DNA of 53,337 nucleotides from Nanobdellota archaeon. Its GTDB lineage: Archaea > Nanobdellota > Nanobdellia > Pacearchaeales > GW2011-AR1. The stretch spans positions 1-53,337 of the forward strand of contig JBBSXO010000004.1 in the NCBI GenBank assembly GCA_038045705.1. Reading direction: 5' to 3'. Position 1 is the stretch's first letter, and the number at the start of each line of letters is the position of its first letter. A model generated the notes under the pieces. The model worked only from the letters and a program-made list of their open reading frames with translations. It had not been told where the DNA came from and did not search any database. This document shows, piece after piece, positions 12,052 through 52,384 of this stretch. Made by a program: the position numbers and the translations under genes.

Positions 12052-13050
12052 CTATTCACTGCTTGGTTCATCTTTAAGACCCTGTTGTGTTACAAAAAAA
12101 GCAGCTTCATTATCAGGCAAATCAGGAGAATCAACCATTTTTGCAACTCTTGATCCTTGTTTTCCTCTTCTAAGATAAATTCTCACTTTTGCAGCGTGTC
12201 CAACTATATGGCCTCCGACATGAGTCGTAGGATCTCCAAACATCATAGCAGGGTTTGCCATTACTTGATTAGTAACATAAACTGCAAACCCCCTCTGCTC
12301 TGCCAACCTAGTAAGAGCATGAAGATATTTGTTAAGCTTCTGTTGTCTATCTGCCAATTGACCACGACCGGTAAACTCGGCTCTAAAATGTGCTGTCAGC
12401 GAATCAACAATCAAGAGTTTTATTGGTTCTCCTTCTTTTATGAGCTCTCCAACTTTATCAAGCAACAAAATCTGATGGTCTGCATTAAATGCTCTTGCAA
12501 CCAAAATATTTTTTAGCACCTTCTCAGAGCTTGCTCCAAGTCCATCTGCAATTTGTTTTATTCTTGCAGGAGAAAAAGTCCCCTCAGTATCTATAAAAAC
12601 AGTTTTTCCATTAACACCACCTTGCTCAATTGGTAATTGTGTATTTACAGCAAGAGCAAAACCTAGTTGACTTTTTCCAGAACCGAAAGCACCATAAGCC
12701 TCTGTCATTGCCCCCACTTCAACACCTCTGCCACCAAGCAAAGCATCTAAATTTTTGCTTCCAGTAGTAATGTAACCAACAGACTCTCTTTTTTTAGCAA
12801 ATTCAGCCCCATCCATGAAACCAAGTTTCATCATTCCTCGCGCAGCTTGTATAGCTTTCCTAGCAACTGCTTCTCCAACACCGGCAAGTTCAGAAAGTGC
12901 TGGAGGAGACATAACAGCAAGGCCCATTAAGTCGTAAACACCAGCAGCCTCCAGTTTAGAAGCAATACCTGGACCAATTCCAGGAATGCTTGTCAATCCA
13001 GGCTCAGCAATATCTTCAGTCACTTCTTTATCTCCCTTCTCTTTTACCAT
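12052..13050 (-). CDS. radA: DNA repair and recombination protein RadA
   Basis: HhH (IPGIGP), GAFGSGKSQ, IDTEGTF, VDSLTAHFRAEFTGRGQLADRQQKL, TNQV, DSPDLP; ATG 13050 preferred. Confidence 0.97.
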   Translation of the reverse strand: MVKEKGDKEVTEDIAEPGLTSIPGIGPGIASKLEAAGVYDLMGLAVMSPPALSELAGVGEAVARKAIQAARGMMKLGFMDGAEFAKKRESVGYITTGSKNLDALLGGRGVEVGAMTEAYGAFGSGKSQLGFALAVNTQLPIEQGGVNGKTVFIDTEGTFSPARIKQIADGLGASSEKVLKNILVARAFNADHQILLLDKVGELIKEGEPIKLLIVDSLTAHFRAEFTGRGQLADRQQKLNKYLHALTRLAEQRGFAVYVTNQVMANPAMMFGDPTTHVGGHIVGHAAKVRIYLRRGKQGSRVAKMVDSPDLPDNEAAFFVTQQGLKDEPSSE

Positions 13051-13109
13051 CAAACAAATTGCTTCAAACACTATATAAAGATTTTAGCAGTCTAAGATAA
13101 ATAAGCTCT

Positions 13110-13562
13110 CTAAAAAAACAAAAACCAGATTAAAATTATGTCTGCAAAAATAAATGAATAAAATATCATATGCTCAATATTCCCACCAGTTCTGACATTC
13201 CCTTTAGCAATATATCTAAGAGGCCAAAATGGTCTAATCCCTTCTATAGTCCAAGAGTCAACTATTAAATGAGTACCATAAGCCAAAAAGAAGGGAAAAG
13301 CCATAGTTGGCAAAAACCATGCAAACAAAGCAGTTATGATTAAACAAAAAGTAAAACTATGAAGAAAGCTTCTTTTTCGAGAAACTCCAGTTTTACTATT
13401 CTTAGTAAAATTTAATCTACGAAAAGACAATCCTCTATCTAAATTAGGCAGTAAAGTAGCAATAACAAAAACAAATATGTAAATCCAAACATGAATAACC
13501 TTGGAAACAAAAAAAAGCATAAAAAACAGAGCAATAGCAATATGTGTTTTATTAAGCATCAA
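13110..13562 (-). CDS. Membrane-bound metal-dependent hydrolase-like protein (YdjM/DUF457 type), degenerate
   Basis: TH...LLPNLD...RSFLHS...THLIVD..T..GIRPFWP pattern. Confidence 0.75.
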   Translation of the reverse strand: MMLNKTHIAIALFFMLFFVSKVIHVWIYIFVFVIATLLPNLDRGLSFRRLNFTKNSKTGVSRKRSFLHSFTFCLIITALFAWFLPTMAFPFFLAYGTHLIVDSWTIEGIRPFWPLRYIAKGNVRTGGNIEHMIFYSFIFADIILIWFLFF

Positions 13563-13627
13563 AAAAGAAGTAAAACCTAAATTTTAAACCTTGCGTAAGA
13601 TTTTTTAGTTATAAACTTCTGTTTAAA

Positions 13628-14521
13628 TCAGTTTTTTTGGACTTCAAGATCTTTTACTACTTCATCAATAGAAAAATCCTCAATATTTCTTACAGAAAAC
13701 TCAAGATTATTACTAAAAGAATTCATTCTAAAACTCCCAGTAAATACCTTTTCATCGCCTATAATTTCAGCACGCTTAGAATTCAAAACATCAAGAGAAA
13801 ATAAGTCTGAATCTGAAACAGAAAGTAATTTTTTTATATTCTCGCTAAATAAAACAGATCTCATAGTAGCATAACCATCATCTAAAACAACATTTAATAA
13901 AACTCCTTTTTCACCTTCATTTTTCTTGGAATCAAAGAATCTAGGTTCAAAAGTCTGAACAATGAAAGCTCTAACATTTACGAAAGAACCTTCTTTCGCT
14001 TCAGCAAAGTTTCCAGCGCTAGTGGTAGTAGTTTCTTTTACAGAATCAAATTTCTTTTCACTAGGCTTTATATCTGAAAAAGCAGAGACGTGTAACTCCC
14101 CGTTTTTCACGTTAGCTCCCTTAATCTCAATAACATTTCCTTGGACAAGATTTCCAGATTCAATTAAAGATACATGATTGGAGTCCCATAAAACAACACG
14201 AACATTAGAAGTCTCATCACCTAAAGTAAAACTTGCAAATTTACCACTCCGTCCATTTTTAGAAAATTCTTTTACTGGAAAGACCCTAGTCACCTTACCT
14301 ATTACATTAGCTCTCCTAAGACCATCACTCAACTCCTTAATCTTAAGCATTTCATTTTCAAAGCTTATTCCAAGTTCAGCAGCAACTATTTGAGCAGCAC
14401 CTTCTTTTGATATTAAACCAGAAAGTTTAGACTTCTTAGCATCAACCTTCTTTTCAATTTCTTCTAAAGCCAAACCAGAATGCCTAGATATTTTTTCAAT
14501 TAAGTTGATATAATTATCCAT
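13628..14521 (-). CDS. rpa: Replication protein A (OB-fold ssDNA-binding protein)
   Basis: LSGLISKEGAAQIVAAELG N-terminus; OB folds LGDETSNVRVVLWD and LDDGYATMRSVLF. Confidence 0.9.
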   Translation of the reverse strand: MDNYINLIEKISRHSGLALEEIEKKVDAKKSKLSGLISKEGAAQIVAAELGISFENEMLKIKELSDGLRRANVIGKVTRVFPVKEFSKNGRSGKFASFTLGDETSNVRVVLWDSNHVSLIESGNLVQGNVIEIKGANVKNGELHVSAFSDIKPSEKKFDSVKETTTTSAGNFAEAKEGSFVNVRAFIVQTFEPRFFDSKKNEGEKGVLLNVVLDDGYATMRSVLFSENIKKLLSVSDSDLFSLDVLNSKRAEIIGDEKVFTGSFRMNSFSNNLEFSVRNIEDFSIDEVVKDLEVQKN

Positions 14522-14923: not shown

Positions 14924-15529
14924 ATGAGTTTAACAAAAGAACAAATATCACAGTTAAAAAAACAATTATTTGAACAAATAAAAGAACTTCCAAAAGAACA
15001 GAGACAAGAAGCAGAAAAACAAATAGAAGATTTATCTGACGAAGCAATAGAATCTATGTTAGAAAAGCAAAAAGAATCTCAAGTTAAAATATTTAGGGAG
15101 ATAGTGACAGAAAAGATACCCAGTAAAAAAATAAGTGAAAACAATAGTGCAATTGCTGTTCTGGACATAAAACCATTATCAAGAGGACATTCAATAATAA
15201 TACCTAAAGAGAAACTTACAGATTTAGACAAAATTCCAAGCGAAATCTCAATTCTTATAGATAAAATATCAAAAGTTCTATCAGAAAAACTAAAACCAAA
15301 AAATGTAAAAATAGTACCAGAAATAAAATTCGGAGAAGCAATAGTGAATATTATTCCTATATATGAAAAAGATTTAACTTTAGAAAACGAAAGATTAAAT
15401 TCTTCTGAAGAAGACTTAGAAAGAACCTTAGAGATAATTAACAAAAAAGAAGAAAAAATTCAAGAACCAAAAGAAAAAGAAGAAAAACAGAAAGAAGAGT
15501 TAAAGAAATTTAAGAGAAGAATACCCTAA
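14924..15529 (+). CDS. HIT-fold protein with degenerate histidine triad and an N-terminal helical extension
   Basis: IFREIVTEKIPS, AVLDIKPLSRGHSIIIPK; the HxHxH position reads EAIVNIIP. Confidence 0.8.
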   Translation: MSLTKEQISQLKKQLFEQIKELPKEQRQEAEKQIEDLSDEAIESMLEKQKESQVKIFREIVTEKIPSKKISENNSAIAVLDIKPLSRGHSIIIPKEKLTDLDKIPSEISILIDKISKVLSEKLKPKNVKIVPEIKFGEAIVNIIPIYEKDLTLENERLNSSEEDLERTLEIINKKEEKIQEPKEKEEKQKEELKKFKRRIP

Positions 15530-16322
15530 AAGTTATCAAGGCAATAAGAAAAGCAGGAGCAAATGGAATACCCATTTTTACTCTAACTTTTTTTCCAGCG
15601 CTTCTTAAAGCCAATACTTCTTTAAACGTTAGTCCAGCAAAATTTTTCTTAATAATTTTTCCATTAACCTTAACATCTTCATATAACCAATCACCTTCAG
15701 TCAATTTTTCAGGAGAGACAAGCTGAATCATACAAGACTTCTCAACAGATTTAACATAAGCAAAAAGCAAGGGAGATAAAAATATGAAAAGAGAAAACAT
15801 TAAAGTAAACAAATCAAAACTAGAGTTATTAAGATATAACAAAACACCCAACACAAAAGATATGATAAATAAATACTTTTTTCTATAAATTTGTTCATAA
15901 AAAGATTTTTTAAAACTCTTAGAATTACTTCTAACTAAAAAAATACTATAAATCAGAGTATACAAAACTCCAGAAGTAAATAAAATAAATATAAATCCAA
16001 ACCCATAGTAAATATAATCCATTAAAGATGAATAAGGGAATATCCCCCCTATACCAAAAAGTAATTTGGCATCTCCTCCTGCAAAAACCTTAGAATAATA
16101 AAATAAATAACCAAAACCAATAAATAAAATTACACCCATTAGACCATAAATGAAAAACATAAAGTCATTTGAATAAATAGAATAAAATGCCCTATAAGCA
16201 AGCACAAAAGCAACTAAAGAGAAAGTTAACCAGTTTGCAATCTCCCTAGTTCTTAAGTCTTGAAAAACTGCAAAGAGTATCGCAACAAAACTAACAGAAT
16301 ACAAAAAGAAATACGCATCCAT
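15510..16322 (-). CDS. Prepilin/class III signal peptidase, A24 family (FlaK/PibD-like)
   Basis: QDLRTREIANW, FAGGDAKLL (both catalytic Asp), C-terminal GIPFAPAFLIA; ATG 16322 preferred. Confidence 0.92.
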   Translation of the reverse strand: MDAYFFLYSVSFVAILFAVFQDLRTREIANWLTFSLVAFVLAYRAFYSIYSNDFMFFIYGLMGVILFIGFGYLFYYSKVFAGGDAKLLFGIGGIFPYSSLMDYIYYGFGFIFILFTSGVLYTLIYSIFLVRSNSKSFKKSFYEQIYRKKYLFIISFVLGVLLYLNNSSFDLFTLMFSLFIFLSPLLFAYVKSVEKSCMIQLVSPEKLTEGDWLYEDVKVNGKIIKKNFAGLTFKEVLALRSAGKKVRVKMGIPFAPAFLIALITFRVFFS

Positions 16323-16372
16323 AAGACTATAAAAAAGAACAGCTTTATTAATATTAGTTCTTATCAATTACC

Positions 16373-17344
16373 ATGAGAAAAGAGTGGATACATAGATACT
16401 TACCAATAATAATTCTCTTAGCACTAACTTCTATTTCTTTAATAATAATAAAAGACTATATCGTAGCAATAATAGGTGCATTCATAACTACCTATTTAGT
16501 TTATCCAATTCATAAAAAACTCGCAAAAAAGCTTCCAATCTGGTTTGCAGCATCAATAACATTAGCAGGAACAATATTAATAATATTTTTACCAATAGTC
16601 TTAGTAATAAAAGAAGTAATTTCGCAAATATATAAGGCGATTCAAAGCGGAGCAATAGCAGTCTTAATAGTAAAAATAGAAAACTTAGAGTTTATACAAA
16701 AATATAATTTTAACTTATCAGAATTAACAAATAATTTCTTTAGTTTTGGTATAAAAGTTTTATCTGGGATAACTGTTTCAGTAGCAACTTCAATAGTTTC
16801 CCTATTTGTGATGATATTCATAATTTACTATCTATTGTTAAGTTGGCCTAAATTAAGCGTCAGAATAAAGAATTATGTTCCATTTGATAATAAAGAAAAA
16901 GTAATGAAAGACATTGCAGAGACTACCAAGAAAATAGTTAGGGGAACACTTCTCTTAGCATTTATTGAAGCATTGATTGCAGGGATAGGTTTCTGGCTTG
17001 CGGGAATCGACTTTTATTTAATCCTAGCAATTTTGATAGGTTTATTTGCATTCATACCTGGAGGTCCAGCAATAGTCTGGGTTCCAACACTAATCATAAA
17101 AATAACTCAGGCAGATTATGTTTCATCTGGGATAATTTTAGCATTTGGATTATTTATTTCAATTTACATAGATACAATACTAAGAACAAAAGTAGCTGGA
17201 AAAGATTCAAGCATTCACCCAGTAGTAATGCTCCTGGGAGTCATGGGTGGAACACCAGTCTTAGGACTAGCAGGAATAGTAGTTGGACCTTTATTGCTTA
17301 GCTACACTTTAGAAATATTAGAAGAAATACTTAGCCAGCACTAG
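16373..17344 (+). CDS. AI-2E family (UPF0118) transporter
   Basis: YLVYPIH, FAFIPGGPAIVWVP, IDTILR, IHPVVMLLGVMGG..LGLAGIVVGP. Confidence 0.9.
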   Translation: MRKEWIHRYLPIIILLALTSISLIIIKDYIVAIIGAFITTYLVYPIHKKLAKKLPIWFAASITLAGTILIIFLPIVLVIKEVISQIYKAIQSGAIAVLIVKIENLEFIQKYNFNLSELTNNFFSFGIKVLSGITVSVATSIVSLFVMIFIIYYLLLSWPKLSVRIKNYVPFDNKEKVMKDIAETTKKIVRGTLLLAFIEALIAGIGFWLAGIDFYLILAILIGLFAFIPGGPAIVWVPTLIIKITQADYVSSGIILAFGLFISIYIDTILRTKVAGKDSSIHPVVMLLGVMGGTPVLGLAGIVVGPLLLSYTLEILEEILSQH

Positions 17345-17465
17345 ATTTCTCGTTTTGACGAGTTCTAAACTGTCCACCACGCTTATACTTATTATGTCCA
17401 CGTTGCTTTTTCTTATCATTCTTGCTTTTTCTCTTTCCACCAAAATAACCATAATCATCAGACAT
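17331..17465 (-). CDS. Small highly basic protein (44 aa, not in the ORF track)
   Basis: MSDDYGYFGGKRKSKNDKKKQRGHNKYKRGGQFRTRQNEKSSAG; fills the intergenic gap; TTTTTATA box about 22-30 nt upstream of the ATG. Confidence 0.6.
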   Translation of the reverse strand: MSDDYGYFGGKRKSKNDKKKQRGHNKYKRGGQFRTRQNEKSSAG

Positions 17466-17495
17466 GAAACTCAGAAATAAAGCACCTATAAAAAT

Positions 17496-17804
17496 CTAGC
17501 TACAAACAACTTTAGAACAGTCAAAATTACAGTTAACATTCAATCTAGAATCACCACAATATATTTCTTCATTATTCAGACTCATAGATTCACAACAAAA
17601 GGTAATCTCATTATCACTTCTGCAAATCAATTCGCAAGCTTGTCTAGTAGCTTCTAAGCTTTGAGTCTTTAAGATAGGTTCAGTTCCAGACTTAAAAAAA
17701 CTAAAACCATTCTTAATAAAAAAAACAAACCCAATCAAAATTGCAACGCCTATAACTATCAATATAATAGTGGTGATTGCAATATCAAAACCTCTGCTAT
17801 TCAT
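17496..17804 (-). CDS. Pilin-like protein with class III signal and Cys-rich head
   Basis: MNSRG|FDIAITTIILIVIGVAILIGF; 8 Cys in the C-terminal half; ATG 17804 preferred over the track start. Confidence 0.8.
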   Translation of the reverse strand: MNSRGFDIAITTIILIVIGVAILIGFVFFIKNGFSFFKSGTEPILKTQSLEATRQACELICRSDNEITFCCESMSLNNEEIYCGDSRLNVNCNFDCSKVVCS

Positions 17805-17805
17805 C

Positions 17806-18207
17806 TTAAGAACAGATGCCTTCGCCATTATTAAATGTAGCGTCGCAAACACCCTCTGATTGATAACAAACAGCACTAATACCACATCTACAAGGAACTT
17901 CACTTGTTATGACATGGAAAGCATCAAATGTGCAAAATCTCAAAACCTCTCCTTCAGAAACAGTTCCAGAATCTCCAATACCAAAACTTCCTCCTGAACT
18001 AGCACCTCCAGAATTAGATGAACCTGAAGGCAATGGCACAGCAGGAGAGTCTTCAGCATTTTCAGCAGACTTAAATCCAATAGTTTCAAAGAATCTTTCA
18101 ACTCCACGATTATTATCGCTCAAAAAAACAAAATAAAAAATTAAAATAAAAACAGAAATCAAAATAGCAAGAAAAACACGAAAAGCAATCTTTTGATTCC
18201 AAACCAT
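17806..18207 (-). CDS. Membrane-anchored protein with Ser/Gly linker and Cys-rich C-terminal domain
   Basis: N-terminal TM, SGSSNSGGASSGG linker, 6 Cys near the C-terminus; co-directional inside the pilin cluster. Confidence 0.75.
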   Translation of the reverse strand: MVWNQKIAFRVFLAILISVFILIFYFVFLSDNNRGVERFFETIGFKSAENAEDSPAVPLPSGSSNSGGASSGGSFGIGDSGTVSEGEVLRFCTFDAFHVITSEVPCRCGISAVCYQSEGVCDATFNNGEGICS

Positions 18208-18241
18208 TCTATGTAATAAATTAAAGAGCTATTAAATTTAA

Positions 18242-18775
18242 TTATGTCCAAGTACAACCAGCAGTCCTACAAGCAAAGTCTGTATTGTAAGTACTACAAG
18301 CAGGACTAATAACGACAGGACCAGTACAACGAACTGTTGTTCCAGATAGATAATCTGCACAAGTCTTCTCACCATCAGATGTAGTTATTTTAGTTTCAGG
18401 TTTAGCAGGAGCTAGAGTTTGACAAGCAGACTGCCTAAATGAAAAGTTATCCATATCACATCTTAATGAATTAATTTCAGTATTAACCCCATCATTTTTA
18501 AGAGAATCAATAATAGTAGGATGTCTACAATTAACAATTTCATCTCCAATCAACTTGTAACTACAAAAATCAATTCTCAAGGTACCTTGAGCATACAATG
18601 CACAAGCCTTTGCAAGAGTCTGCAATTCACTAGGAGCATTATCAAATGCTCCAAAGAAAAAGTCCCATCCCTTAGTAAAACCAACAATTAGCATAACAAG
18701 AACCGCAAGGCCTAAAACAATCAGTATAACTGTAGAAATAGTAACATCTCCTTTTCTTTCCCTTACAATCACCAT
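18242..18775 (-). CDS. Pilin-like protein with class III signal, Cys-rich
   Basis: MVIVRERKG|DVTISTVILIVLGLAVLVMLIVGF. Confidence 0.82.
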   Translation of the reverse strand: MVIVRERKGDVTISTVILIVLGLAVLVMLIVGFTKGWDFFFGAFDNAPSELQTLAKACALYAQGTLRIDFCSYKLIGDEIVNCRHPTIIDSLKNDGVNTEINSLRCDMDNFSFRQSACQTLAPAKPETKITTSDGEKTCADYLSGTTVRCTGPVVISPACSTYNTDFACRTAGCTWT

Positions 18776-18797
18776 ACTAAACAGTAATAAAAGTTCT

Positions 18798-19283
18798 TTA
18801 TAAATCTTGTTCTATAATCTCATTAATAGAGACAACATCAACATCAAATAAAATGACTTTTGAATAAGAGTAACGCATTTCATTATTAGAAACAACATAA
18901 TCCTCAAAAACATCTGAAACAACAAGTTTGTAACCTAAAGCAGTTTGTTCAATAGAATAATCTCCAAGAGATATTTTGGCATATAGGTTTGTGTTCAATC
19001 CAGATAAGCGCTTTTCAAGACCCAGTCTTTTCAAAGATTCATTGAAAGATGTCAAAAAATCAGTAGAGTCTTTTGAATCAGTAATTGACAATAGAACAAT
19101 CTCTTTAAGACTTTCTTCAAATAATCTATGACTTGCTTCACTTTTACTAGTCAAAATTTGAAGATTTGCTTTTTGATCATAAATATCTCCATTAAAAGTT
19201 ATCATGTTAAACAATGCTAAAATAATCAAAATAAAAGCTAAAAAAGGAGTTAGAATAACAGCAATATTTCCGCCCCTATTCAT
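18798..19283 (-). CDS. Minor pilin-like protein
   Basis: MNRGG|NIAVILTPFLAFILIILALF. Confidence 0.7.
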   Translation of the reverse strand: MNRGGNIAVILTPFLAFILIILALFNMITFNGDIYDQKANLQILTSKSEASHRLFEESLKEIVLLSITDSKDSTDFLTSFNESLKRLGLEKRLSGLNTNLYAKISLGDYSIEQTALGYKLVVSDVFEDYVVSNNEMRYSYSKVILFDVDVVSINEIIEQDL

Positions 19284-19789
19284 GCTACCCTCTTAATAAA
19301 CAAGTTTAGTTCATTTGGATTGCAGAACCCAATAGCATCATAGTTCTTAGTATTAGTATCAAAAATTTTCTCAAATTCAGAAGCAGGAATCTCACTTACG
19401 GCAAAATTCTCAAATGCTTGAAATTTTAAATGAGCAAAATAACGTGCATTGATATCAAAATGAGCTGAACTACGAGTAGCAAAAACAAAAGCATAACCAT
19501 ATCCATATCTATCAGAAAATTCCCTTATTAATACCTCTTTAAGTTCCTCATTTAAAGAATAAAGTTTTCCAGATTTGCATCCTTTATCAACAGCTTCTCT
19601 GACAGTGAGAATTTCATTATTAAATATTATATAACTCATTCCAAAGTTATTAGCAATATTTTCTTCATTTTCAAAATCAATAGAAATAAAACCAGCCAAA
19701 ATTACAAACAAAACCATAAAAAAAAATACAACAATCATTCCAGGAAAATTAGCTAATATGTTCCCTAATATTTTACCAAATCTATTCAT
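19280..19789 (-). CDS. Minor pilin-like protein
   Basis: MNRFG|KILGNILANFPGMIVVFFFMVLFV; ATGA overlaps at both ends. Confidence 0.65.
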   Translation of the reverse strand: MNRFGKILGNILANFPGMIVVFFFMVLFVILAGFISIDFENEENIANNFGMSYIIFNNEILTVREAVDKGCKSGKLYSLNEELKEVLIREFSDRYGYGYAFVFATRSSAHFDINARYFAHLKFQAFENFAVSEIPASEFEKIFDTNTKNYDAIGFCNPNELNLFIKRVA

Positions 19790-20247
19790 GCTAAAACTCT
19801 CCTTGGACTCTGGGAGCTTCCAACCAAAATATAATTTCCGTTTTGAGATTTGAATTCAGCACACAAAGGTAAACCCCTATTTCTAAATCTTGTATCTAAA
19901 AAACATCTTACCTTGAAGTCTTCAACACCAATAGAAAGTTCAGCTCCTTTACTGTTCTTCAAATAAACAAAATGCTTTCCATCTTCTAGAATACTCTGAC
20001 TAACATCACATTTCTCAAAAAAAGAATTTTTATCAATTGAATTTAAATCAAAAAACCCTTCTCTAACAAAACAGTCCTTTGCTTCCTCTAAAATCAAATT
20101 AGACTCAGTAAACCTATAGTCGTAACCTTTACCATAAAAAGCTACTAATCCTCCAATCAAACCAGCAGCAATTATAGTCAAAGTAATCAAAAATGGTATG
20201 TATAATATACCTTCAGGCACAGCACCTTTTCTATCTTTAAAGTTCAT
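19786..20247 (-). CDS. Minor pilin-like protein
   Basis: MNFKDRKG|AVPEGILYIPFLITLTIIAAGL. Confidence 0.75.
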   Translation of the reverse strand: MNFKDRKGAVPEGILYIPFLITLTIIAAGLIGGLVAFYGKGYDYRFTESNLILEEAKDCFVREGFFDLNSIDKNSFFEKCDVSQSILEDGKHFVYLKNSKGAELSIGVEDFKVRCFLDTRFRNRGLPLCAEFKSQNGNYILVGSSQSPRRVLA

Positions 20248-20662
20248 TTCTTTGTTTCCTCACTACTTTGAAAATAAGTCTTGTTTTATCTGCCCCACCA
20301 GAAGGACTTTCCACATACCAATCAATAATGTCAAAATCCATAAAGAAATCAAAACTAGTTCCAGATCCTATCCTAGCACTTGCAGTAACTTTATTATTTA
20401 CATTATCAATAGAAATAATTTCTTTTATAAGTTTTTCATTTTTGCTTGCAGCATTAGCTAAAGGAGTTATATCTATTTTAAATTCCATTCCTGGTTCAGC
20501 TTTATTTATTATTTTTACAATCTCTTTCGAATAAAAGTCTTCATAATAAGTAGCACCGTTGGAATAAGAACTTATGATTGAAAACATGTAAAACAAAAAA
20601 AGAATAAGGATTATCAAATAAACAATGTTTCCAGTAAAGAAATCAATACCTCTTTTATTCAT
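20237..20662 (-). CDS. Minor pilin-like protein
   Basis: MNKRG|IDFFTGNIVYLIILILFLFYMF. Confidence 0.78.
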   Translation of the reverse strand: MNKRGIDFFTGNIVYLIILILFLFYMFSIISSYSNGATYYEDFYSKEIVKIINKAEPGMEFKIDITPLANAASKNEKLIKEIISIDNVNNKVTASARIGSGTSFDFFMDFDIIDWYVESPSGGADKTRLIFKVVRKQRNEL

Positions 20663-20702
20663 GTTTTGAAAAGTAAAAACAAGAATATAAAGATAACTAA
20701 AA

Positions 20703-21317
20703 TTAGCTAAAAGATAAATCTCTACCTAAGTTACAAGTGTTTTTAACAAACTGAATTTCATCAAAAACGCTAACATAACTAATAGGTCCACTAATAGATA
20801 TCCCAGATTTTTCTTTTTTAACAAAAAATGGTATTAAGTTAGACTGTTGATTCATTATATAACAAGATACAAAATCACTCTTTATAGATTGACCTTGCGG
20901 AAACTTATATTTATATTCTGAAGAAACTTCAATATTTCTATCAAAATACCTACAATAGCTTACTTGCTGACAATTTGTAATAGATTTCTCACATAAGCAC
21001 AAACAACTCTTGTCAAAGCATTTCTGAGGTTTTCTATCCTTGCCAATAATATCTGATCCACTAGCTATAGGTACATCTTTACTCCATGCAGATAAAATCC
21101 ACCCACTAACACTTACTAAAGCAAAGGTATTACTCTCTCCATCTTCTAAATTTTCAATCTTAGCGCTTAAGCTGTTGACGAAAGCTTGTGCATTGTTTTC
21201 ATTCTGTTTAGTATAAGACTCAAAAAGATTTTTTGCAAATATCCCTATTACTATTATAGCAACTACAACCAATAATGTTCCAAGGAGTTCTTCCAGTGTC
21301 CATACTCCATTTCTCAT
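20703..21317 (-). CDS. Minor pilin-like protein
   Basis: MRNG|VWTLEELLGTLLVVVAIIVIG (Glu at +5); CFDKSCLCLC motif. Confidence 0.78.
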   Translation of the reverse strand: MRNGVWTLEELLGTLLVVVAIIVIGIFAKNLFESYTKQNENNAQAFVNSLSAKIENLEDGESNTFALVSVSGWILSAWSKDVPIASGSDIIGKDRKPQKCFDKSCLCLCEKSITNCQQVSYCRYFDRNIEVSSEYKYKFPQGQSIKSDFVSCYIMNQQSNLIPFFVKKEKSGISISGPISYVSVFDEIQFVKNTCNLGRDLSFS

Positions 21318-22618
21318 AATTTACCCTCTATTAAATTACAAATACCGTTAATGCTATTCACATCCCAGTTCATTAATTTCACGAGTGAACATCCTTTCTT
21401 TTCTGTTTCACTCAAAGTACTTTCAAATTTTCCACATGTGGCGGCAGATAACGCCTGATTAGCTGAAACAGCAGAAGAAGCATCAGAAGCAAGACTCAAA
21501 GAAGTACCCCCTACAGCAGCAATAGTGAAAAGAGCCTTGTACCATCCTGGGCCAGGAATTAGGAAGCTAGCAATCTTTCCAGGTCCGCTTAAAGCTGTAA
21601 TTCCTCCAAGAATAGCTCCATTCTGTAAAGTATTCCAGAAAGCATCATCCTCCTTAATTGAAGGAACCTTAATTTGTGAAAATACAATTGCAATCTGGTT
21701 TGAAGAGGTAGCTTTTTTCAAATTAGCAAGATAACTAACAAGTTTAGGCTCCAGCATTTTTTCAATTTCAGCTTTTTCCACAGGCTGATTCTTGAACTGC
21801 TCTAGCAATACAGCTTTTGCATTAGCAAATTCCTCGGGAGTCAAATCAGTCTTGCCAAAGTACTGGCTTAATCCTTCTGTATCTCCTATAGAACTATATC
21901 CTGTCCCAGCACTAGGATCAGTAAATGCCTGGAAATAAGTCAAACTGCTTCTAGGAACTTTCTCTCTTGACATGTAAGTGTTATAATTTATCTGCTTCAA
22001 AATTCCCAATTGCTTTAATTGCTTGTCAGCCTCAATTAATTTATCAGAAAATGCAACTCTTGAGCATATCACACATGCAGGTTTAATTTTAGGGATAGCT
22101 AATCCCAGAGTCTCTGTTGCAGTATTTGCGAGTATATCTTCTATATCTTTTCCATAATTGCTACTTTGAGTGAAAATGTCCATTTTTCCCTGTCCAGTCA
22201 TATACCAACAGTCAAACATTGCGTTTGCAACCTTTCTTTGAATAGTTTCTAGTGTCTGTGTTTGTTCTCCAATATCTGAGCTCATCTTTACTTTTATATC
22301 CGCAACATTTTTTTCTCCAGCAAATTGCTTGCAGTCACTCTTCTGATTTCCAAAGATAGTAAAAGAATCAAAAAATCCTTCATTAACAGTTATACAAATC
22401 TTTTCAGTATGGCAATTCAAAGGAATAGCTTGTTGAACAACACTAGGAACAGTAGCTCTTGAAATAATAGAAAGCCTACATAAATCTCTTTCAGATAAAT
22501 CTCTATTTTCAAAAACCTGGAAAAGTGCAAATGCAAGTATTGCAAATCCCACAATAGTTGCAATTATCAAAGCAAGTTGCGAAGAAACAAGATCGCCCTT
22601 TTTATTATTAAATATCAT
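21314..22618 (-). CDS. Large pilin-like protein with internal hydrophobic hairpin
   Basis: MIFNNKKG|DLVSSQLALIIATIVGFAILAF; multiple Cys; late Gly/Ala-rich segment GAILGGITALSGPGKIASFLIPGPGWYKALFTIAAVGG. Confidence 0.78.
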   Translation of the reverse strand: MIFNNKKGDLVSSQLALIIATIVGFAILAFALFQVFENRDLSERDLCRLSIISRATVPSVVQQAIPLNCHTEKICITVNEGFFDSFTIFGNQKSDCKQFAGEKNVADIKVKMSSDIGEQTQTLETIQRKVANAMFDCWYMTGQGKMDIFTQSSNYGKDIEDILANTATETLGLAIPKIKPACVICSRVAFSDKLIEADKQLKQLGILKQINYNTYMSREKVPRSSLTYFQAFTDPSAGTGYSSIGDTEGLSQYFGKTDLTPEEFANAKAVLLEQFKNQPVEKAEIEKMLEPKLVSYLANLKKATSSNQIAIVFSQIKVPSIKEDDAFWNTLQNGAILGGITALSGPGKIASFLIPGPGWYKALFTIAAVGGTSLSLASDASSAVSANQALSAATCGKFESTLSETEKKGCSLVKLMNWDVNSINGICNLIEGKL

Positions 22619-22652
22619 AGAAAAGAAAGAAAAAACAAGTTTATAATTCTAA

Positions 22653-22760
22653 TCACGTCAATCTCTTAAATAAAAAGTAAATAGAGAATCCTGCAAGGAC
22701 CAATATCAAAACCCAAAGAAGGATATTTGTCAAGTTCTCATAAGCAAAACCCTTATGCAT
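22653..22760 (-). CDS. Mini-pilin (35 aa, not in the ORF track)
   Basis: MHKG|FAYENLTNILLWVLILVLAGFSIYFLFKRLT; SD-like GGTGGTG upstream; overlaps the stop of the upstream gene. Confidence 0.7.
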   Translation of the reverse strand: MHKGFAYENLTNILLWVLILVLAGFSIYFLFKRLT

Positions 22761-24000
22761 TTGCACCACCTTTAACAATTTTATAATCTGCATAATATCC
22801 ATTTAAAATATTAAAAACAAATTGACTTGTCTGTGCATGATTTAGCCTATGCCATTCCTTTTCTCTAAGGTAATCAACATCAATAGCTCTTCCTTTTATG
22901 AAAACTCCATCATTGCCATCATTTTTATCTTTTTCAAAATAAACTTCTTCATTCCAAAATAGACCATTAGGTTTAGTCAATAAAATCAAGTTTTCATAAA
23001 AACTATTTTCAGAAGTAATTAGCCTAGCATCATCAAATCTAGGATCAACATTCCACCCACTTGAAGAATAAGAAACATAACCAGGTGCAGGAGTATCAAA
23101 ATCAGTATCAAAATCAAAGCTAAATCTTATATCGGGTTTTGTTCCTACTTGCGTATACATTTCCGATGATATCTCATCTTTGTCTTCATAACTAACTAAT
23201 CCAAAGCAATTATCCTTGTAATCCTGTGTTTTTCCAACATTGTCAAGTTTAAGATCAACAAGAAGATAACCGTCAACTAATCTCACAGAAAATTCCTTGT
23301 CTGATTTAGCTTTATCTTCTTTCAAATTTGCAAAAGTCAAAAATTTCTCACATTTGTTTCCTTGAAGTATTGAATCTCTCCATGCAAGTATATTTTGCAC
23401 ATGATCTGAGTTCTTCAAAGATTCATATTCAGGTTTTACAAATTCAGGGACAAAAGCATCTTGTGCAATATTGTAATCTTCAAAATCTATAGTTGCATCA
23501 TTGGTATAACCAAATTTAAAGTAAAGAGGCAACGAGTTTACTTTTTCTTTTTCTTCAAATGTTTTTTTAGTTTTTGGATAAACCTTAACAAGACTATTAA
23601 CAGACATTTCCTGAGAAACAACCCAGTATCTCCAACTGTTAATGTCAATGTTAAAATTTTCAGGTTTCCTCTTTGTATTAACATAAAAATCGAGAAGCTC
23701 TTTTTTTATTTCATTAGGTACAAATTCATACTTATCAAGAGTATAGGCTTTAGAAGAATCAGCAATAACTTGCCATCTATCTCCTTCAATGTAATAGCCA
23801 AGTTCAAGTTCATTAGTTTTTAAATTCACCCCAACAATTGAAGTACCTTCAGGAGCAGTTATATTGAAGCTTGGAAGCAGTTTAGCCAATCCAACAAAAA
23901 CCAAAAAATTCTTCCAAACACCAGTCAAAGTAATAACTAAAACTGCAATCCCTATAATCACTCCAACCCATATAGTTCTAGTATCTCCCCTATTAATCAT
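22753..24000 (-). CDS. Large pilin-like/adhesin protein
   Basis: MINRG|DTRTIWVGVIIGIAVLVITLTG followed by a ~380-aa soluble region. Confidence 0.75.
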   Translation of the reverse strand: MINRGDTRTIWVGVIIGIAVLVITLTGVWKNFLVFVGLAKLLPSFNITAPEGTSIVGVNLKTNELELGYYIEGDRWQVIADSSKAYTLDKYEFVPNEIKKELLDFYVNTKRKPENFNIDINSWRYWVVSQEMSVNSLVKVYPKTKKTFEEKEKVNSLPLYFKFGYTNDATIDFEDYNIAQDAFVPEFVKPEYESLKNSDHVQNILAWRDSILQGNKCEKFLTFANLKEDKAKSDKEFSVRLVDGYLLVDLKLDNVGKTQDYKDNCFGLVSYEDKDEISSEMYTQVGTKPDIRFSFDFDTDFDTPAPGYVSYSSSGWNVDPRFDDARLITSENSFYENLILLTKPNGLFWNEEVYFEKDKNDGNDGVFIKGRAIDVDYLREKEWHRLNHAQTSQFVFNILNGYYADYKIVKGGANA

Positions 24001-24152
24001 CTACCAAATCTCCACAAATCCTTTAAAAAATCAAGAGTAGAATTAGTCTTTCCACTTAAAACAGAGTAAAGAAACAGTATAATAGCAAGAGTTCCTAAAG
24101 TTATTATCCAAGGAATCAAAGTATCAAAAGTCAATTCACCTTTTTTCACCAT
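23997..24152 (-). CDS. Short Flp-sized pilin (51 aa, not in the ORF track)
   Basis: MVKKG|ELTFDTLIPWIITLGTLAIILFLYSVLSGKTNSTLDFLKDLWRFGR; first gene of the cluster, ATGA overlap with the next gene, TTTATA box about 25-30 nt upstream. Confidence 0.8.
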   Translation of the reverse strand: MVKKGELTFDTLIPWIITLGTLAIILFLYSVLSGKTNSTLDFLKDLWRFGR

Positions 24153-24251
24153 GCAAAACAAAACAAAAGCATCAATATAAATCTAATTATCTTTAACCAA
24201 AGTTTAATAACATAAAAAAGGTATCCTTACAATGCAAAAAGGAGTTGAAAA

Positions 24252-26408
24252 ATGGTAACAACAGATGAAATTCTCAAAAAGTATCAACAAAAAATAGAAT
24301 CAGAAATTGGTAGTAAAACAGGCTACAACAAAGCTTCTTATTCACAAGACTATGAACATTTCAAAGAAGACATGCTTCCAGATATTTCTAGGTACAAAAG
24401 GTGGGCAGATGCTTTAGGAAGAATAATAAAAATAAGACTTTCAGAAAAAGAAAATACAAAAATCCAACGCCATCTTAACATAGCACATTTAGATATAATG
24501 CCCTCACAATCAGCAGGCTTGGCATTAGTAGCAATGTTTCTAACAATGTTAGTAACTTTAACTTTAGTATTAAGCATAACGTTTCTAAATAGTTCATTCC
24601 CATTAATGCTTACTTTTCTAGGATTTATCCTAAGTGGATTTGTTTATTATTACGTTTACTCTATGCCAAATAGATTAGCTAACATATGGAGACTAAAAGC
24701 ATCTTCTCAAATGATCCCTGCAATATTATATATTGTAATTTATATGAAACATACTTCAAATTTAGAAAGAGCAGTTCAGTTTACCTCTGAACATTTAGAC
24801 ACCCCATTAGCTCTTGACTTCAAAAAAATACTTTATGATGTAGAAACAGGAAGATATCAAACAGTTAAACAATCCCTAGATGCTTATTTAGAAACATGGA
24901 GAGACTATTCTCCTGAATTTATAGAATCATTCCACTTAATTGAATCGAGCCTTTACGAGCCAGGAGAATCACAAAGAGTAAACACTTTAGAAAGAGCATT
25001 GCAAGTAATGTTAGAAGGTGTTTATGATAAAATGCTCTCTTATTCAAGAGACATAAGAGCACCATTAACCAATGTCTACATGTTAGGAATTATTCTTCCA
25101 ACATTAGCATTAGCACTTCTCCCATTAGCCAGCGTAGTAATCGCAGGAGGTCTAAAATGGTATCATCTTTTTACGATATTTAATCTGATAATACCTTTAG
25201 GAGTCTATTTCATGACTTCAGAAATCTTGCTAAAAAGACCTGGAGGTTACGGAGAAAATTCTAATATAGAAAAAAATCCAGATTACCACAAATTCACATC
25301 ATCAAAGCCATGGTTAATCGCAGGTATAATCTGCATACCACTTTTCATTTTAGGGATATTACCATTTATATTACAAAGTGATTTAATTACTTCCATTTTA
25401 AACATAAAGAGCGATTATACTTTTGGGGAATTAGGATTCCCATTTTTTCAAGATCAGTATCTTTTTGATTTTAAAGAAGTAGCAAGTAGTAAAGTTGGAC
25501 CATTTGGCCTTGCAGGAATAATGCTAAGTTTATTCATCCCATTATCGATAGCAAGTTACTTCAGTATCGCTTATAGACTAAAAACGAAAGAAATAATTAA
25601 AGCAAGAAGAGAAACAAAAGAATTAGAAAAAGAATTCACAAGTACCTTATTCCAGTTAGGCAATCGTTTAGGTGATGGTGTTCCAGCAGAAAGAGTCTTT
25701 GCAAAAGTGGCAGAATCATCTCAAGGTCAAAAAACACAAAGTTTCTTCACATTAGTAAATCAAAACATCCAGCAAATGGGTATGTCAATAGAACAAGCAG
25801 TTTTTGACAATCAAAGAGGAGCGATAATCTACTATCCATCTGCAATAATATCTACTAGCATGAAAATTCTTATAGAATCTGTAAAAAAGGGTCTCAAAAT
25901 AGCAGCAAGATCAATGATGTCAATCTCAGATTATATAAAAAATATTCAAAAAATAAATGACAGGCTGAAAGACTTACTAGCAGAAGTAGTATCAGATATG
26001 CGCTCCAATATGGTTTTTCTAGCACCATTATTATCTGGAATAATTGTAGGTTTAACTTCAATGATTGCAATAATTCTAAACAAACTAAAATCTCTTTCAG
26101 ATTTAACGGCAGGAGGAACAGAGATAGCAGGCATAGGAAGCATAGGAAATATAACTAATCTGTTTGATATAACAAGCATAATACCTCCATATTTTGTTCA
26201 AGTCTCAATAGGGCTATATTTGATAGAAATAATTTTTATCCTAACAGGAACGTTAGTAACTGTAGATTCAGGTAAGGATGAGTTACAAGAAAAACATGAA
26301 TTAAGTAGGAATCTAAAACGTGGATTAACATTATATCTAATAACCACATTCATAGGAACATTGATGTTAACAGGTTTGGCAGCCGTTGCCCTTTCAGGTT
26401 TAGGTTAA
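24252..26408 (+). CDS. Type IV pilus membrane platform protein (two T2SSF/TadB-TadC-like halves)
   Basis: 718-aa polytopic protein: HTSNLERAV..PLALDF first repeat, LFQLGNRLGDGVPAE second repeat; lies between the pilins and the ATPase; SD GGAG. Confidence 0.8.
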   Translation: MVTTDEILKKYQQKIESEIGSKTGYNKASYSQDYEHFKEDMLPDISRYKRWADALGRIIKIRLSEKENTKIQRHLNIAHLDIMPSQSAGLALVAMFLTMLVTLTLVLSITFLNSSFPLMLTFLGFILSGFVYYYVYSMPNRLANIWRLKASSQMIPAILYIVIYMKHTSNLERAVQFTSEHLDTPLALDFKKILYDVETGRYQTVKQSLDAYLETWRDYSPEFIESFHLIESSLYEPGESQRVNTLERALQVMLEGVYDKMLSYSRDIRAPLTNVYMLGIILPTLALALLPLASVVIAGGLKWYHLFTIFNLIIPLGVYFMTSEILLKRPGGYGENSNIEKNPDYHKFTSSKPWLIAGIICIPLFILGILPFILQSDLITSILNIKSDYTFGELGFPFFQDQYLFDFKEVASSKVGPFGLAGIMLSLFIPLSIASYFSIAYRLKTKEIIKARRETKELEKEFTSTLFQLGNRLGDGVPAERVFAKVAESSQGQKTQSFFTLVNQNIQQMGMSIEQAVFDNQRGAIIYYPSAIISTSMKILIESVKKGLKIAARSMMSISDYIKNIQKINDRLKDLLAEVVSDMRSNMVFLAPLLSGIIVGLTSMIAIILNKLKSLSDLTAGGTEIAGIGSIGNITNLFDITSIIPPYFVQVSIGLYLIEIIFILTGTLVTVDSGKDELQEKHELSRNLKRGLTLYLITTFIGTLMLTGLAAVALSGLG

Positions 26409-28663
26409 ACCTTCTTAACAGTATTCATCAACCAACTCTTCCATTCAGGAAATACTCTTTCAGAAACGGGTAAACCAACTTCACGAGTTATCTTCTCACT
26501 TATTCTATGAAACATATCATTGCTTAAAGCATTAAACTTACTCTCCATCAGAGCAGGCATTTGCATCTTTTTAGAAACATCAACAATCTCTTGTTTTATC
26601 TTTCCCCTAAGTAAAATATTATCCCACACGGCATCCCAGTTTCCAGCCCATCCTTTAACGGTTCCAGCAATTTCTTTTATAATTTCAGAGTCTCCGTTCA
26701 TCAAATCATCAGTAGGCTCAAGCTCATCTTTTTCAACATTATATCTTACAAGATCAACAAATCCTTTTTCATCTTGGGGATCTTTAGTCCAATGTTTCCT
26801 AACTTCAGTAAGTTGGGTAACTCTCTTTTTATAATGGAGTCCGTCAGGAGTCCTTATTGGATTAGCAACAACAATAATATCAGTTGCCTTAAAACTTGTA
26901 ACAGGAACTCCTAAATCATTTACAACTCTGTCAAAGACACCATATGGATTAGCACCATGAATTGTTCCAGCAACTAAATTTGCCAAGGCTCCAACTCTCA
27001 TTGCTTCATAAAGCGCTTTTGCTTCAGAACTTCTAACTTCTCCTACTATTAAAGCAGAGTCTCCTAAACGCAAACTAGCTCTAATACCTTCAGAAGCCTC
27101 AACTTCAGTAGTAGCTTCTAGCAAGGCACTTCTAACTTTCATCCTCTGGATATTGTAACCTAACTTACGTAAAGAATCGACAGGCAATTCAAGCGTATCT
27201 TCAATAACAATTGTCCTAACAGATGGAATAACTTCAAGCATTGCGCTTCCAAGAAGAGAAGTCTTACCACTAGATCTAGTGCCTGCAATCAACATAGTTC
27301 TATTTCCATCAATCAAAAAACTAAGCAGTCCAGCAGTAAACGAGTTAATCATCTTATTATTTACAAAAAGTGGTAACGTCCAAGGATCCTCCCTATGTCT
27401 ACGTAAAGCATAAGCAATACCATTAGGAGATAATGGTCTTTGAATGGCCGCAACTCTAGCACGAACATTTCCAAAGAAAATATCGGTATCTAATATTGGG
27501 TTAGCCTCATCTAATGGCCTTCCACTTTGTAAACGTAGTTTAGAAGCCCATGAATCCGCATCTTCATATGAAGGCAATATATTTGTAACACAATCTCCAT
27601 GCTTTGCATGCCTTACAAAAATATAATTTTGACCAATAGGAGAGTTCAAAAAAATATCTTGTAAATTATCATCAAATAACAAAACCTCTATAAGTCCAAA
27701 GCCTATTGTCTGCCTAACAAGTATTTTAGCAAGAGCATTTAATTCGCGATAGTTTAAAGGAATTCTCTTATTTTGAGATAACTCTGATAATAAGTCTCTT
27801 GCTACATTAAAAAATAAAGAACGTACTTTTTCAGAATCAACAAATTCTTCAGATTTAGGCTGATATTCAAGTAAAACATTCTTACCCAAATTCAACAAAT
27901 AGTGATGTTCTTCGCTAAGAGAATATTCAGGAGGAGTAATATGATAGAGATATTTTGAATCCCCTTCAATTTTCAAAACAATTACGGGAACATCCTCAAA
28001 CCCAGAATGAACTTCGTACTGATCAATTAACTCCGCATTTTCTGGAATTTGTGAAACTAATCTTGTAAAAGTAAAATTAGGTAATATATCGGGTCTAAAC
28101 AGGGAATAGTAAATCTTCCTATCTCCGACAGCATAAGTATCTATTACATCTATCGAAGAGGATATCAATTTAGTTTTCATAAGCATATCCCTAAAGCGCA
28201 AAAGCAAATTAACATATCCCTCAAGATGAGAATTTTTAGATTCATTTCTCTTATATAAAGAAATTCTTTTAGAGATCTCAAGATAACAAGAAGCAGGATC
28301 TTGCCTTAAAAGACTAAGCAAATAGCTTAGTTCTGCTGGGACAAAGTCTAATCCTGCAAATAAACCAAGCTTATCAGAAGAAAGTATCCTTTCTTGTTTT
28401 AACAAATAAGTATACAATTGAGATATTTCTAGTAACAATGAAACTTGTTCAAAAGGATAATTATAATTTCTCTGTTGAACTAAAATAACCCTTGAGACTT
28501 CAGGATTATCCATTAAAGCATCAATGACCCTTCCCATGACCTCGGCAGAATCGGCAACAGAAGGAACTATTGAAGCACCCAGATAATTAATGTATAATAT
28601 AGTTTCCCCCTCTTTTCTCTGAAGTTCAGTAGAATATACTGGAGAGTTTAGTTTAAACACCAT
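26405..28663 (-). CDS. Type II/IV secretion (pilus assembly) ATPase with long N-terminal extension
   Basis: GFGLIEVLL.DD.LQDI, Walker A AGTRSSGKTS, IEDTLEL, LRLGDSALIVGEVRS.EA, GTIHG. Confidence 0.93.
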   Translation of the reverse strand: MVFKLNSPVYSTELQRKEGETILYINYLGASIVPSVADSAEVMGRVIDALMDNPEVSRVILVQQRNYNYPFEQVSLLLEISQLYTYLLKQERILSSDKLGLFAGLDFVPAELSYLLSLLRQDPASCYLEISKRISLYKRNESKNSHLEGYVNLLLRFRDMLMKTKLISSSIDVIDTYAVGDRKIYYSLFRPDILPNFTFTRLVSQIPENAELIDQYEVHSGFEDVPVIVLKIEGDSKYLYHITPPEYSLSEEHHYLLNLGKNVLLEYQPKSEEFVDSEKVRSLFFNVARDLLSELSQNKRIPLNYRELNALAKILVRQTIGFGLIEVLLFDDNLQDIFLNSPIGQNYIFVRHAKHGDCVTNILPSYEDADSWASKLRLQSGRPLDEANPILDTDIFFGNVRARVAAIQRPLSPNGIAYALRRHREDPWTLPLFVNNKMINSFTAGLLSFLIDGNRTMLIAGTRSSGKTSLLGSAMLEVIPSVRTIVIEDTLELPVDSLRKLGYNIQRMKVRSALLEATTEVEASEGIRASLRLGDSALIVGEVRSSEAKALYEAMRVGALANLVAGTIHGANPYGVFDRVVNDLGVPVTSFKATDIIVVANPIRTPDGLHYKKRVTQLTEVRKHWTKDPQDEKGFVDLVRYNVEKDELEPTDDLMNGDSEIIKEIAGTVKGWAGNWDAVWDNILLRGKIKQEIVDVSKKMQMPALMESKFNALSNDMFHRISEKITREVGLPVSERVFPEWKSWLMNTVKKV

Positions 28664-31619: not shown

Positions 31620-31638
31620 TAGGGTAAATGTTAGATTG

Positions 31639-39615: not shown

Positions 39616-40125
39616 ATGGTAGAGACTATTTTATCTAGCCCGATTATATCCGAGGGAGTTTTACCTTTTATTTTGATTTTTACTGTTGTGTTTGCAATCT
39701 TGCAAAAATCTAAAGTTTTGGGAGATGATAAAAAGCAAATTGATGCGATGGTTGCTTTGGTTTTTGGACTAGTCACTATTACTTTTGCTAGGGCTGTTGG
39801 AATAATTAATCAATTACTTCCTTTTCTTGCTGTTGCTATTATAATGATTTTAGTGTTTATGATTCTAATTGCTTTATTTTATAAGAATGGAGATGGAAGT
39901 GAAACTAAGTTGTATGGAGCTTTTAAGACTATAATGATGATACTTGCATTTGTTGCAGTGGTTATTGCAGGACTTTATTTTACAGGTGCTTGGGATTATC
40001 TTTCTTATAAGTTTAGTGAACCTGGAAGTAATTTAGTTACAAATATTGTTTTTATTGCGATCATTATTGGCGGATTTTTGGTTATTTTCTTTGGAGATAA
40101 GCAGAAGAAGCCTGAAGGCAAGTAG
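39616..40125 (+). CDS. Uncharacterised ~5-TM membrane protein (paralog 1)
   Basis: VLPFILIFTVVFAILQKSKVLG...IDAMVALVFG...LLPFLAVAII. Confidence 0.8.
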   Translation: MVETILSSPIISEGVLPFILIFTVVFAILQKSKVLGDDKKQIDAMVALVFGLVTITFARAVGIINQLLPFLAVAIIMILVFMILIALFYKNGDGSETKLYGAFKTIMMILAFVAVVIAGLYFTGAWDYLSYKFSEPGSNLVTNIVFIAIIIGGFLVIFFGDKQKKPEGK

Positions 40126-40173
40126 TAAGGGGTTTTACGAAACATATTTAAATAAAGTTAATATTTTTACTGT

Positions 40174-40737: not shown

Positions 40738-40741
40738 TATA

Positions 40742-41287: not shown

Positions 41288-41292
41288 TTTTT

Positions 41293-52335: not shown

Positions 52336-52384
52336 TAACACCTCAATATATTTTGAAATCGTATTTATTTAAACATATTGTTAC

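Follow-up and report, generated by a model that had tools for sequence, protein, structure and literature searches.

A near-universal type IV filament-like machine of Nanobdellota with an ordered block of uncharacterised pilin families and a predicted hydrophobic hairpin

The tables and text available from the 2016 census of archaeal type IV filament systems record a subclade 4F ATPase in nanoarchaea, where pilins were not identifiable, and a clade 4 ATPase of 714 aa in Nanoarchaeum equitans (PMC4858521). More recently, the main text of Hamm 2024 described two conserved DPANN loci encoding an ATPase, a platform and coiled-coil proteins (CCPs), with filament proteins in Locus 1 only; these CCP loci were found in Pacearchaeota, other Nanobdellota and Nanohaloarchaeota, and the corresponding proteins are made in a parasitic nanohaloarchaeon (PMC11291902). 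In the text of a 2026 survey, ordered loci were considered rare in Nanobdellati, most being assigned to System 1 by their pilins. By what means DPANN archaea attach to their hosts and obtain food from them is an open question: an attachment organelle known from tomography has been proposed to exist phylum-wide (PMC11420986, PMC11104419), and the available parts of the reports describe one per cell, with a filament or tube of 6.6-8 nm passing through a portal and with its genes unassigned (PMC11420986, PMC11104419, 10.64898/2026.06.04.730037), the imaging papers having named no organelle genes. Here we analyse a type IV filament-like locus encoding an assembly ATPase, a fused platform, an A24 prepilin peptidase and a block of class III signal proteins (pilin-like subunits), located in a stretch of 53,337 nucleotides from a Nanobdellota archaeon of the Pacearchaeales (GenBank assembly GCA_038045705.1, contig JBBSXO010000004.1, positions 1-53,337), referred to as a whole as the window.

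The best reading of the data is that the locus encodes a machine of the cell envelope that belongs to the core of Nanobdellota, where it is near-universal, and also of Nanohaloarchaeota, and that has an ATPase of probable subclade-4F type. In a sample of 201 genomes drawn across Nanobdellota, the N-terminal 260 residues of the ATPase, which match neither of the two paralogous ATPases of the window's genome, were detected in 198 genomes, in single copy in all but three, and the family of a trio of small membrane proteins encoded elsewhere in the window was also matched in 198, mostly in three copies. A System-1-type ATPase (contig C3 of the same genome), used as a control, was found in 116 of the 201 genomes, with one to four copies. 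Among 60 close relatives, the long ATPase was near full-length or clearly orthologous (E <= 3e-112) in 58, with 56-92% identity where whole. The ATPase was present in 21 of 21 genomes of an order with 0.4-0.8 Mb genomes, and the fetched loci of that order showed the platform gene adjacent in 11/11 and CCP1 in 10/11. Two Nanohaloarchaeota-type loci (L070, L071) presented an ATPase with 43-44% identity, preceded by coiled-coil genes and followed by platform and class III genes.

These observations were extended to the surroundings of the ATPase gene, with 85 loci retrieved at lengths of at most 20 kb, many of which end at contig ends. The platform was encoded in 72 of them, CCP1 and CCP2 in 69 each and the membrane family in 59; within four genes of the ATPase, CCP1 was found in 69 and the platform in 68. 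The recurrence of motor, platform and coiled coils in the loci of relatives confirms the synteny, but the orientation of the platform gene in the window is atypical: its convergence with the ATPase gene, correctly described in the original prediction, is a local inversion, because both genes lie on the same strand in 61 of the 72 loci showing both.

The motor proteins were identified with different degrees of support. All ORFs of the original prediction were present with the lengths, strands and +1 to +5 residues that it had given, and matches to PF01478 (40.5 bits, cut-off 26.5) and PF00437 (51.8 bits, cut-off 24.9) confirmed the peptidase and the ATPase, respectively. Alignment of 68 sequences of the long ATPase, a family of 699-847 aa without inteins, showed invariant Walker A, Walker B and His-box residues and no conserved Cys before residue 358. 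The long ATPase gene has been repeatedly invaded by inteins with homing endonucleases (L042, L109, L137; P0014, P0033, P0086), and intein invasion is common in conserved essential genes. The proposed double platform is indeed a fused two-half protein, although this could be established via homologues only, since it has no Pfam match of its own and T2SSF was matched in 4 of 28 family members. Its N-terminal half, which resembles a System-1-type half, matches the other platform of the same genome (E 2.6e-9), both halves match the platform of a Haloterrigena plasmid (E 5e-28 and 2e-16), and a direct half-versus-half profile comparison was unsuccessful.

A leader scan recovered 11 leader genes among 12 consecutive genes, against a maximum of 8 in 2000 shuffles; genome-wide, the leader and helix rule flagged 87 of 983 called ORFs. 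The eleven leader genes that had been proposed all exist, but those at 17496 and 18242 are paralogous (blastp E 2e-8) and the block therefore contains ten pilin families, not eleven. The start of the gene with the FDIAI residues was corrected to the ATG at 17804, giving 102 aa. The co-directional block is compact, with intergenic gaps of -11 to +40 bases among its 12 genes (17496-24161), one of which lacks a Gly leader (17806-18207), and an AI-2E transporter gene on the opposite strand (16373-17344, +) splits the peptidase gene from the pilins. Across 755 distinct members of the ten families, 700 showed a basic leader, G/A and a hydrophobic helix, a count that is partly circular as the profiles include the leader. 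As had been proposed, the +1 to +5 residues follow no shared motif: they differ between families and are loosely kept within them, E at +5 reaching at most 34% in any family. The motif of EppA substrates is Q+1/E+5. No leader gene scored above the Pfam or NCBIfam pilin/archaellin cut-offs, and comparison of the pilin heads, with the first 38 columns removed, gave no profile pair at a probability of at least 50; the C and D profiles align over 74-104 columns, leader included. Altogether, the data support the reading of these genes as a type IV filament system whose pilin families are uncharacterised.

The order of the block (H, K, A, G, F, E, D, C) was largely kept in 20 distant genomes chosen by their H gene, even where the block is unlinked from the ATPase gene, and four more class III genes and a gene for a very large protein often precede it in distant genomes. 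Judging from its sequences, family A is the likely shaft pilin, because it is short, often in tandem (and sometimes helix-only), and is the one family that can still be identified clearly in the order with the smallest genomes. Structures were predicted for two of the ten families, H and E, and both models showed the long N-terminal helix expected of pilins. In the family E model (pLDDT 90.1), for which no PDB fold match was obtained at E <= 0.001, a helix to residue 63 is followed by a small alpha+beta head; a wide fold search returned Cache/PDC-like sensor domains (Z <= 6.9, rmsd 3.2, 82 aligned residues), below the trust level. Profile searches against solved structures with the platform and families E and H gave no match.

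Family H was found in 172 of the 201 phylum genomes. It is a large family of 4591 representatives, with lengths of up to about 450 aa. In its model (pLDDT 81.6), the long N-terminal helix leads to an alpha/beta head in which a helical hairpin, residues 323-396, is placed between two strands. In a set of 150 H sequences, the 19-residue hydropathy reached at least 1.6 in 104 hairpins, in comparison with none in the remainder of the head, and uncharged runs of at least 20 residues were present in 129 hairpins vs 11 in the head remainder; GxxxG was also present in 129 of the 150 hairpins. No fold match to H was found at E <= 0.001 in PDB or a viral library, and a wide fold search with residues 316-401 gave generic hairpins only (Z <= 6.3, below the trust level, with the head barely covered). 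In the ESM Atlas, family H and one of the membrane paralogues matched only hypothetical Nanobdellota clusters.

The gene set, its conservation, the operon order and the predicted hairpin led us to consider a host-contact filament with a membrane-anchoring tip, a reading to which we give a little less than an even chance. The host attachment or delivery role of the original prediction is plausible, and now better argued from the near-universal single copy and the hydrophobic hairpin pilin. In such a filament, the A24 peptidase would remove the basic leaders, as expected from its family, and the ATPase with the fused platform would polymerise the pilins in the manner of their relatives. The shaft would consist of the short family-A pilins, and a priming tip complex would be made up of families C to H, which are single-copy and fixed in order. 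From their co-occurrence and synteny, CCP1, CCP2 and the membrane trio may provide a cytoplasmic scaffold and a membrane collar round the motor. The extruded H hairpin would most likely insert into the target membrane, and the filament would grip and pull the membrane of the host.

Several observations weigh against this host-contact filament. The H protein of the window itself is a weak example, with a hydropathy of 1.39 and one GxxxG, and the Pfam glycine zipper was matched in just 1 of 35 H members. Family H was missed in 29 of the 201 phylum genomes, and a search of five genomes from the most reduced order gave no more than matches to the leader region, in three of the five and with E >= 0.0066, so that the hairpin may not be universal. 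The hairpin could also re-enter its own membrane or bundle with other subunits. Furthermore, universality indicates importance and does not tell which function is involved, a host-contact filament leaves the adjacency of RPA unexplained, and the 2026 preprint, in its available parts, treats type IV pilus genes as adhesive only and not as linked to the organelle (10.64898/2026.06.04.730037).

A more specific proposal, possible but on balance doubtful, is that the gene set encodes the central molecular parts of the attachment organelle of Nanobdellota, with a hairpin-tipped filament entering or crossing the host membrane and with the motor, platform, membrane trio and coiled coils forming the gate or portal. 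The 6.6-8 nm diameter falls within the range of type IV filaments. The organelle, of which each cell has one, is the most obvious structure to compare with the locus. If true, a type IV filament would have been converted into a cell-invasion device common to most cluster 2 DPANN archaea.

The presence of an RPA gene next to the pilins in most other families raises an alternative that we hold to be rather unlikely, a DNA-uptake pilus binding DNA and pulling it in for nucleotides or repair, in which the membrane trio would be a channel replacing ComEC, and co-transcribed RPA and RadA would receive the strand. An RPA gene comes after the final pilins, in their orientation and with gaps mostly below 100 bases, in 25 of 44 scorable loci (7 incomplete loci were left out), that is, in 25 of 27 loci outside the window's own family, RadA is present in 22 of the 85 ATPase loci, and pilus-mediated DNA import has been put forward as a hypothesis for DPANN archaea (PMC9563170, in the part available). 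On the other hand, no locus of the window's own family shows the RPA link (0/17), and old gene order may suffice to explain the adjacency, because three unrelated gene clusters recur at comparable rates, in 16-17 loci each. In addition, ComEC and DprA gave no matches in the genome, which is 91% complete, no DNA-binding domain was recognised in any pilin by Pfam-level scans, and catching DNA needs no hydrophobic hairpin. The DNA-uptake pilus and the host-contact filament can be combined, the filament entering the host and drawing DNA.

The description of the locus as self-contained and minimal was not supported, because conserved partner genes lie outside the range proposed, at 39616-42242 of the window and on contig C1. 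The CCP genes are displaced in this window about 12.6 kb from the ATPase gene. CCP1 was tried as a FlaC-like protein and discarded (2 of 86 members at E < 0.001, taken as generic coiled-coil noise), and the membrane trio matched no named family, a weak match to NuoJ (E 0.0017) being taken as hydrophobic likeness. Homologues of three class III genes that precede the pilin block in distant genomes lie at C1:118893-120863. They are part of a second class III block (C1:118893-132409; 168, 181, 323, 167, 690, 252 and 254 aa) with large secreted proteins, which probably belongs to the same machine, because these three genes are homologous to those directly upstream of distant pilin blocks. The self-contained character was also lost for the peptidase. 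Only one A24 match was found genome-wide (844-kb genome), and the genome encodes three secretion ATPases, so the peptidase at the locus, the only one for three systems, is probably shared with the two other pilus systems. Both are complete-looking type IV filament loci, each with two platform genes: one is System-1-like, with Q+1/E+5 leaders and an ATPase of the KaiC-like kind (C3:109266-122756), and the other has PilA-type leaders (C5:53876-62793).

The features of the locus and its partners are collected in the table.

Coordinates of the filament locus, its displaced partners and adjacent genes in the window (TM, transmembrane segments)
Feature	Position	Strand	Basis or remark
RPA, YdjM-family membrane protein, RadA	12052..14521	-	Pfam; in most other families placed immediately downstream of the pilin operon; functional link no more than possible
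A24 prepilin peptidase, 285 aa, 6 predicted TM	15510..16367	-	PF01478; both aspartates conserved in 22 homologues; TM counted by simple hydropathy scan
AI-2E transporter	16373-17344	+	between peptidase and pilins
Pilin family A copy 2, 102 aa	17496..17804	-	leader; blastp paralogy with copy 1
133-aa single-TM protein, no Gly leader, genus-restricted (6 loci)	17806..18207	-	
Pilin family A copy 1, 177 aa, candidate major pilin family	18242..18775	-	short, multi-copy, most widespread
Pilin family C, 161 aa	18798..19283	-	final pilin ahead of RPA in most lineages
Pilin family D, 169 aa	19280..19789	-	
Pilin family E, 153 aa	19786..20247	-	helix to residue 63, small alpha+beta head, four conserved Cys (alignment, model)
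Pilin family F, 141 aa	20237..20662	-	
Pilin family G, 204 aa	20703..21317	-	
Pilin family H, 434 aa, candidate tip subunit	21314..22618	-	long helix, disulfide-type alpha/beta head, hairpin ~323-396
Pilin family I, 35 aa, helix only (HKG/FAYEN)	22653..22760	-	
Pilin-like family J, 415 aa, fast-evolving	22753..24000	-	recognised within genus only (9 loci, none distant)
Pilin family K, 54 aa, helix only (KKG/ELTFD)	23997..24161	-	
Fused two-half membrane platform, 718 aa, 9 predicted TM	24252..26408	+	homologues
Assembly ATPase, 752 aa, family-specific N-terminal extension ~200 aa	26405..28663	-	PF00437
Three paralogous membrane proteins (169, 187, 181 aa; 5 predicted TM each)	39616..41287	+	no named family
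Coiled-coil protein CCP2, 209 aa: small N-domain of helices followed by a Q/P linker and the coiled coil	41293..41922	-	
Coiled-coil protein CCP1, 106 aa	41922..42242	-	

Two further readings were weighed against the parts list. According to the first, the locus encodes an ordinary adhesion pilus that represents subclade 4F in DPANN archaea, has divergent pilins and plays no particular part in penetrating the host. The four standard parts are present, the ATPase and platform are nearest to a haloarchaeal pair, and large variable heads, as in family J and the longest H proteins, fit adhesins; we nevertheless regard this reading as unlikely, as adhesion does not call for a strict single copy, for three additional membrane proteins that are universal or for the hairpin, and the genome's two other systems, which are patchier and whose pilin leaders are recognisable, suit plain adhesion better. 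The second reading, a short piston (an endopilus of the type II secretion kind) that lacks a long filament and either drives proteins across the S-layer or assembles a structure on the surface, appears improbable. The parts list of type II secretion includes minor pilins and extra membrane and coiled-coil partners, and the many single-copy, fixed-order minor pilins found here with such partners resemble it; the second class III block and the very large secreted proteins that precede the pilin block in distant genomes point in the same direction. Nevertheless, the tandem family-A copies suggest a polymer shaft, and neither a substrate nor an outer pore was identified for a piston.

Other genes were observed near the main features. 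A PRC-barrel gene (39238-39576) and a gene for a 214-aa non-Pfam membrane protein (38484-39128) lie ahead of the membrane trio, as they do in 16-17 other loci; PRC-barrel proteins act in archaeal cell division. The ATPase loci of seven genomes (L028, L031, L032, L036, L038, L039, L041) contain a gene for a protein of 354-367 aa, which by its motif may be FtsZ-like. Immediately past the ATPase region, a tandem pair of paralogues (30345-32883) encodes secreted proteins that combine Ig-like domains and Ser/Gly linkers with a TM anchor at the C-terminus and are possible adhesins or S-layer-like proteins, and a 768-aa Cdc6/Orc1-like gene (50035-52341) carries what reads as an apparent intein.

The motor and coiled-coil core and the nanoarchaeal 4F ATPase were already described in the available text of PMC11291902 and PMC4858521, respectively. 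What is new is that the core is near-universal, that the pilin block is ordered, and that there is a large H family with a glycine-rich hydrophobic hairpin. Literature searches, whose scope excluded subscription journals, bioRxiv supplements, Hamm's main supplement and tables S4/S5 of 2026, found no description of the pilin block, membrane trio or hairpin. The machine is important to the lineage, with a known motor and uncharted subunits: about 15 defined parts, kept once in 98% of the sampled genomes, make a short list of candidates. These data supply the pilins missed by the 2016 census for the nanoarchaeal 4F ATPase, and qualify the 2026 statement that Nanobdellati loci are rarely ordered, since order is present and the pilins match no Pfam or NCBIfam model.

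In comparison with known systems, the locus shows the traits of the superfamily of type IV filaments: a VirB11-type ATPase with intact catalytic motifs, a TadC/ArlJ-like platform, an A24 peptidase with its two aspartates, and class III subunits. For the head fold of archaeal type IV filaments, the two of ten families modelled gave best Z values of 6.3 and 6.9, below the trust level. An archaellum is not indicated, the FlaI model scoring 110.5 bits on the ATPase, under its cut-off of 550, and no archaellin being matched within the locus (a genome-wide archaellin search was not made). The Epd pilus of Methanococcus (System 1), as described in the available text of PMC13705601, resembles the locus in its many pilins per operon and helix-only small pilins. 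It differs in having two separate platform genes instead of a single fused 718-aa one (fused also in relatives) and the 9-TM EppA instead of a peptidase with 6 predicted TM, and the pilins of the locus lack the Q+1/E+5 motif.

A closer likeness was found to haloarchaea. The best plasmid match of the ATPase was the Haloterrigena turkmenica plasmid ATPase (229 bits, residues 185-673), which is followed by a fused platform; the ATPase profile scored 280 bits on this protein vs 136 and 95 on the two other ATPases of the window's genome, and the platform profile 166 bits on the plasmid platform vs 36 on the other platform of the window's genome. In a quick tree, which warned of long branches and held a single non-DPANN row, this Haloterrigena row grouped with the long ATPases. 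On that plasmid (pHTUR04, L229:8527-14372), a DEAD/DEAH helicase gene directly follows the ATPase-platform pair, with ParA and a DUF87 ATPase nearby, so that this pair too has neighbours that handle DNA. The tables of Makarova 2016, as available, give one clade 4 ATPase for H. turkmenica, listed beside a Natronomonas ATPase whose locus contains the subclade-4F coiled-coil arCOG07564 (PMC4858521); we infer that the H. turkmenica entry is the plasmid protein, and the 4F label is derived in this way. Subclade 4F, as described in the consulted parts of PMC4858521 and, for haloarchaeal PilB2/C2, PMC9856176, also has an N-terminally extended ATPase and has a coiled-coil partner, arCOG07564, and the 714-aa ATPase of N. 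equitans falls within the size class of the long ATPases. On the contrary, the ATPase N-domain is not Cys-rich here and compares with the haloarchaeal one at E 0.13, the pilin profiles reach at most 6.4 bits on two haloarchaeal pilin-like candidates, the Haloterrigena plasmid locus has no CCP or membrane-trio homologue, and 4F is patchy in haloarchaea whereas this machine is near-universal in Nanobdellota. With the loci of Hamm 2024 it shares a CpaF-like ATPase, a TadC-like platform and two coiled-coil proteins (PMC11291902). The text of that study does not mention an ordered pilin block, membrane trio or hairpin pilin, which its dataset may hold as hypothetical proteins. Judged by that text, the locus most likely corresponds to Locus 2 of Hamm 2024, and the closest named relatives of its ATPase and platform, by sequence, appear to be those of haloarchaeal subclade 4F.

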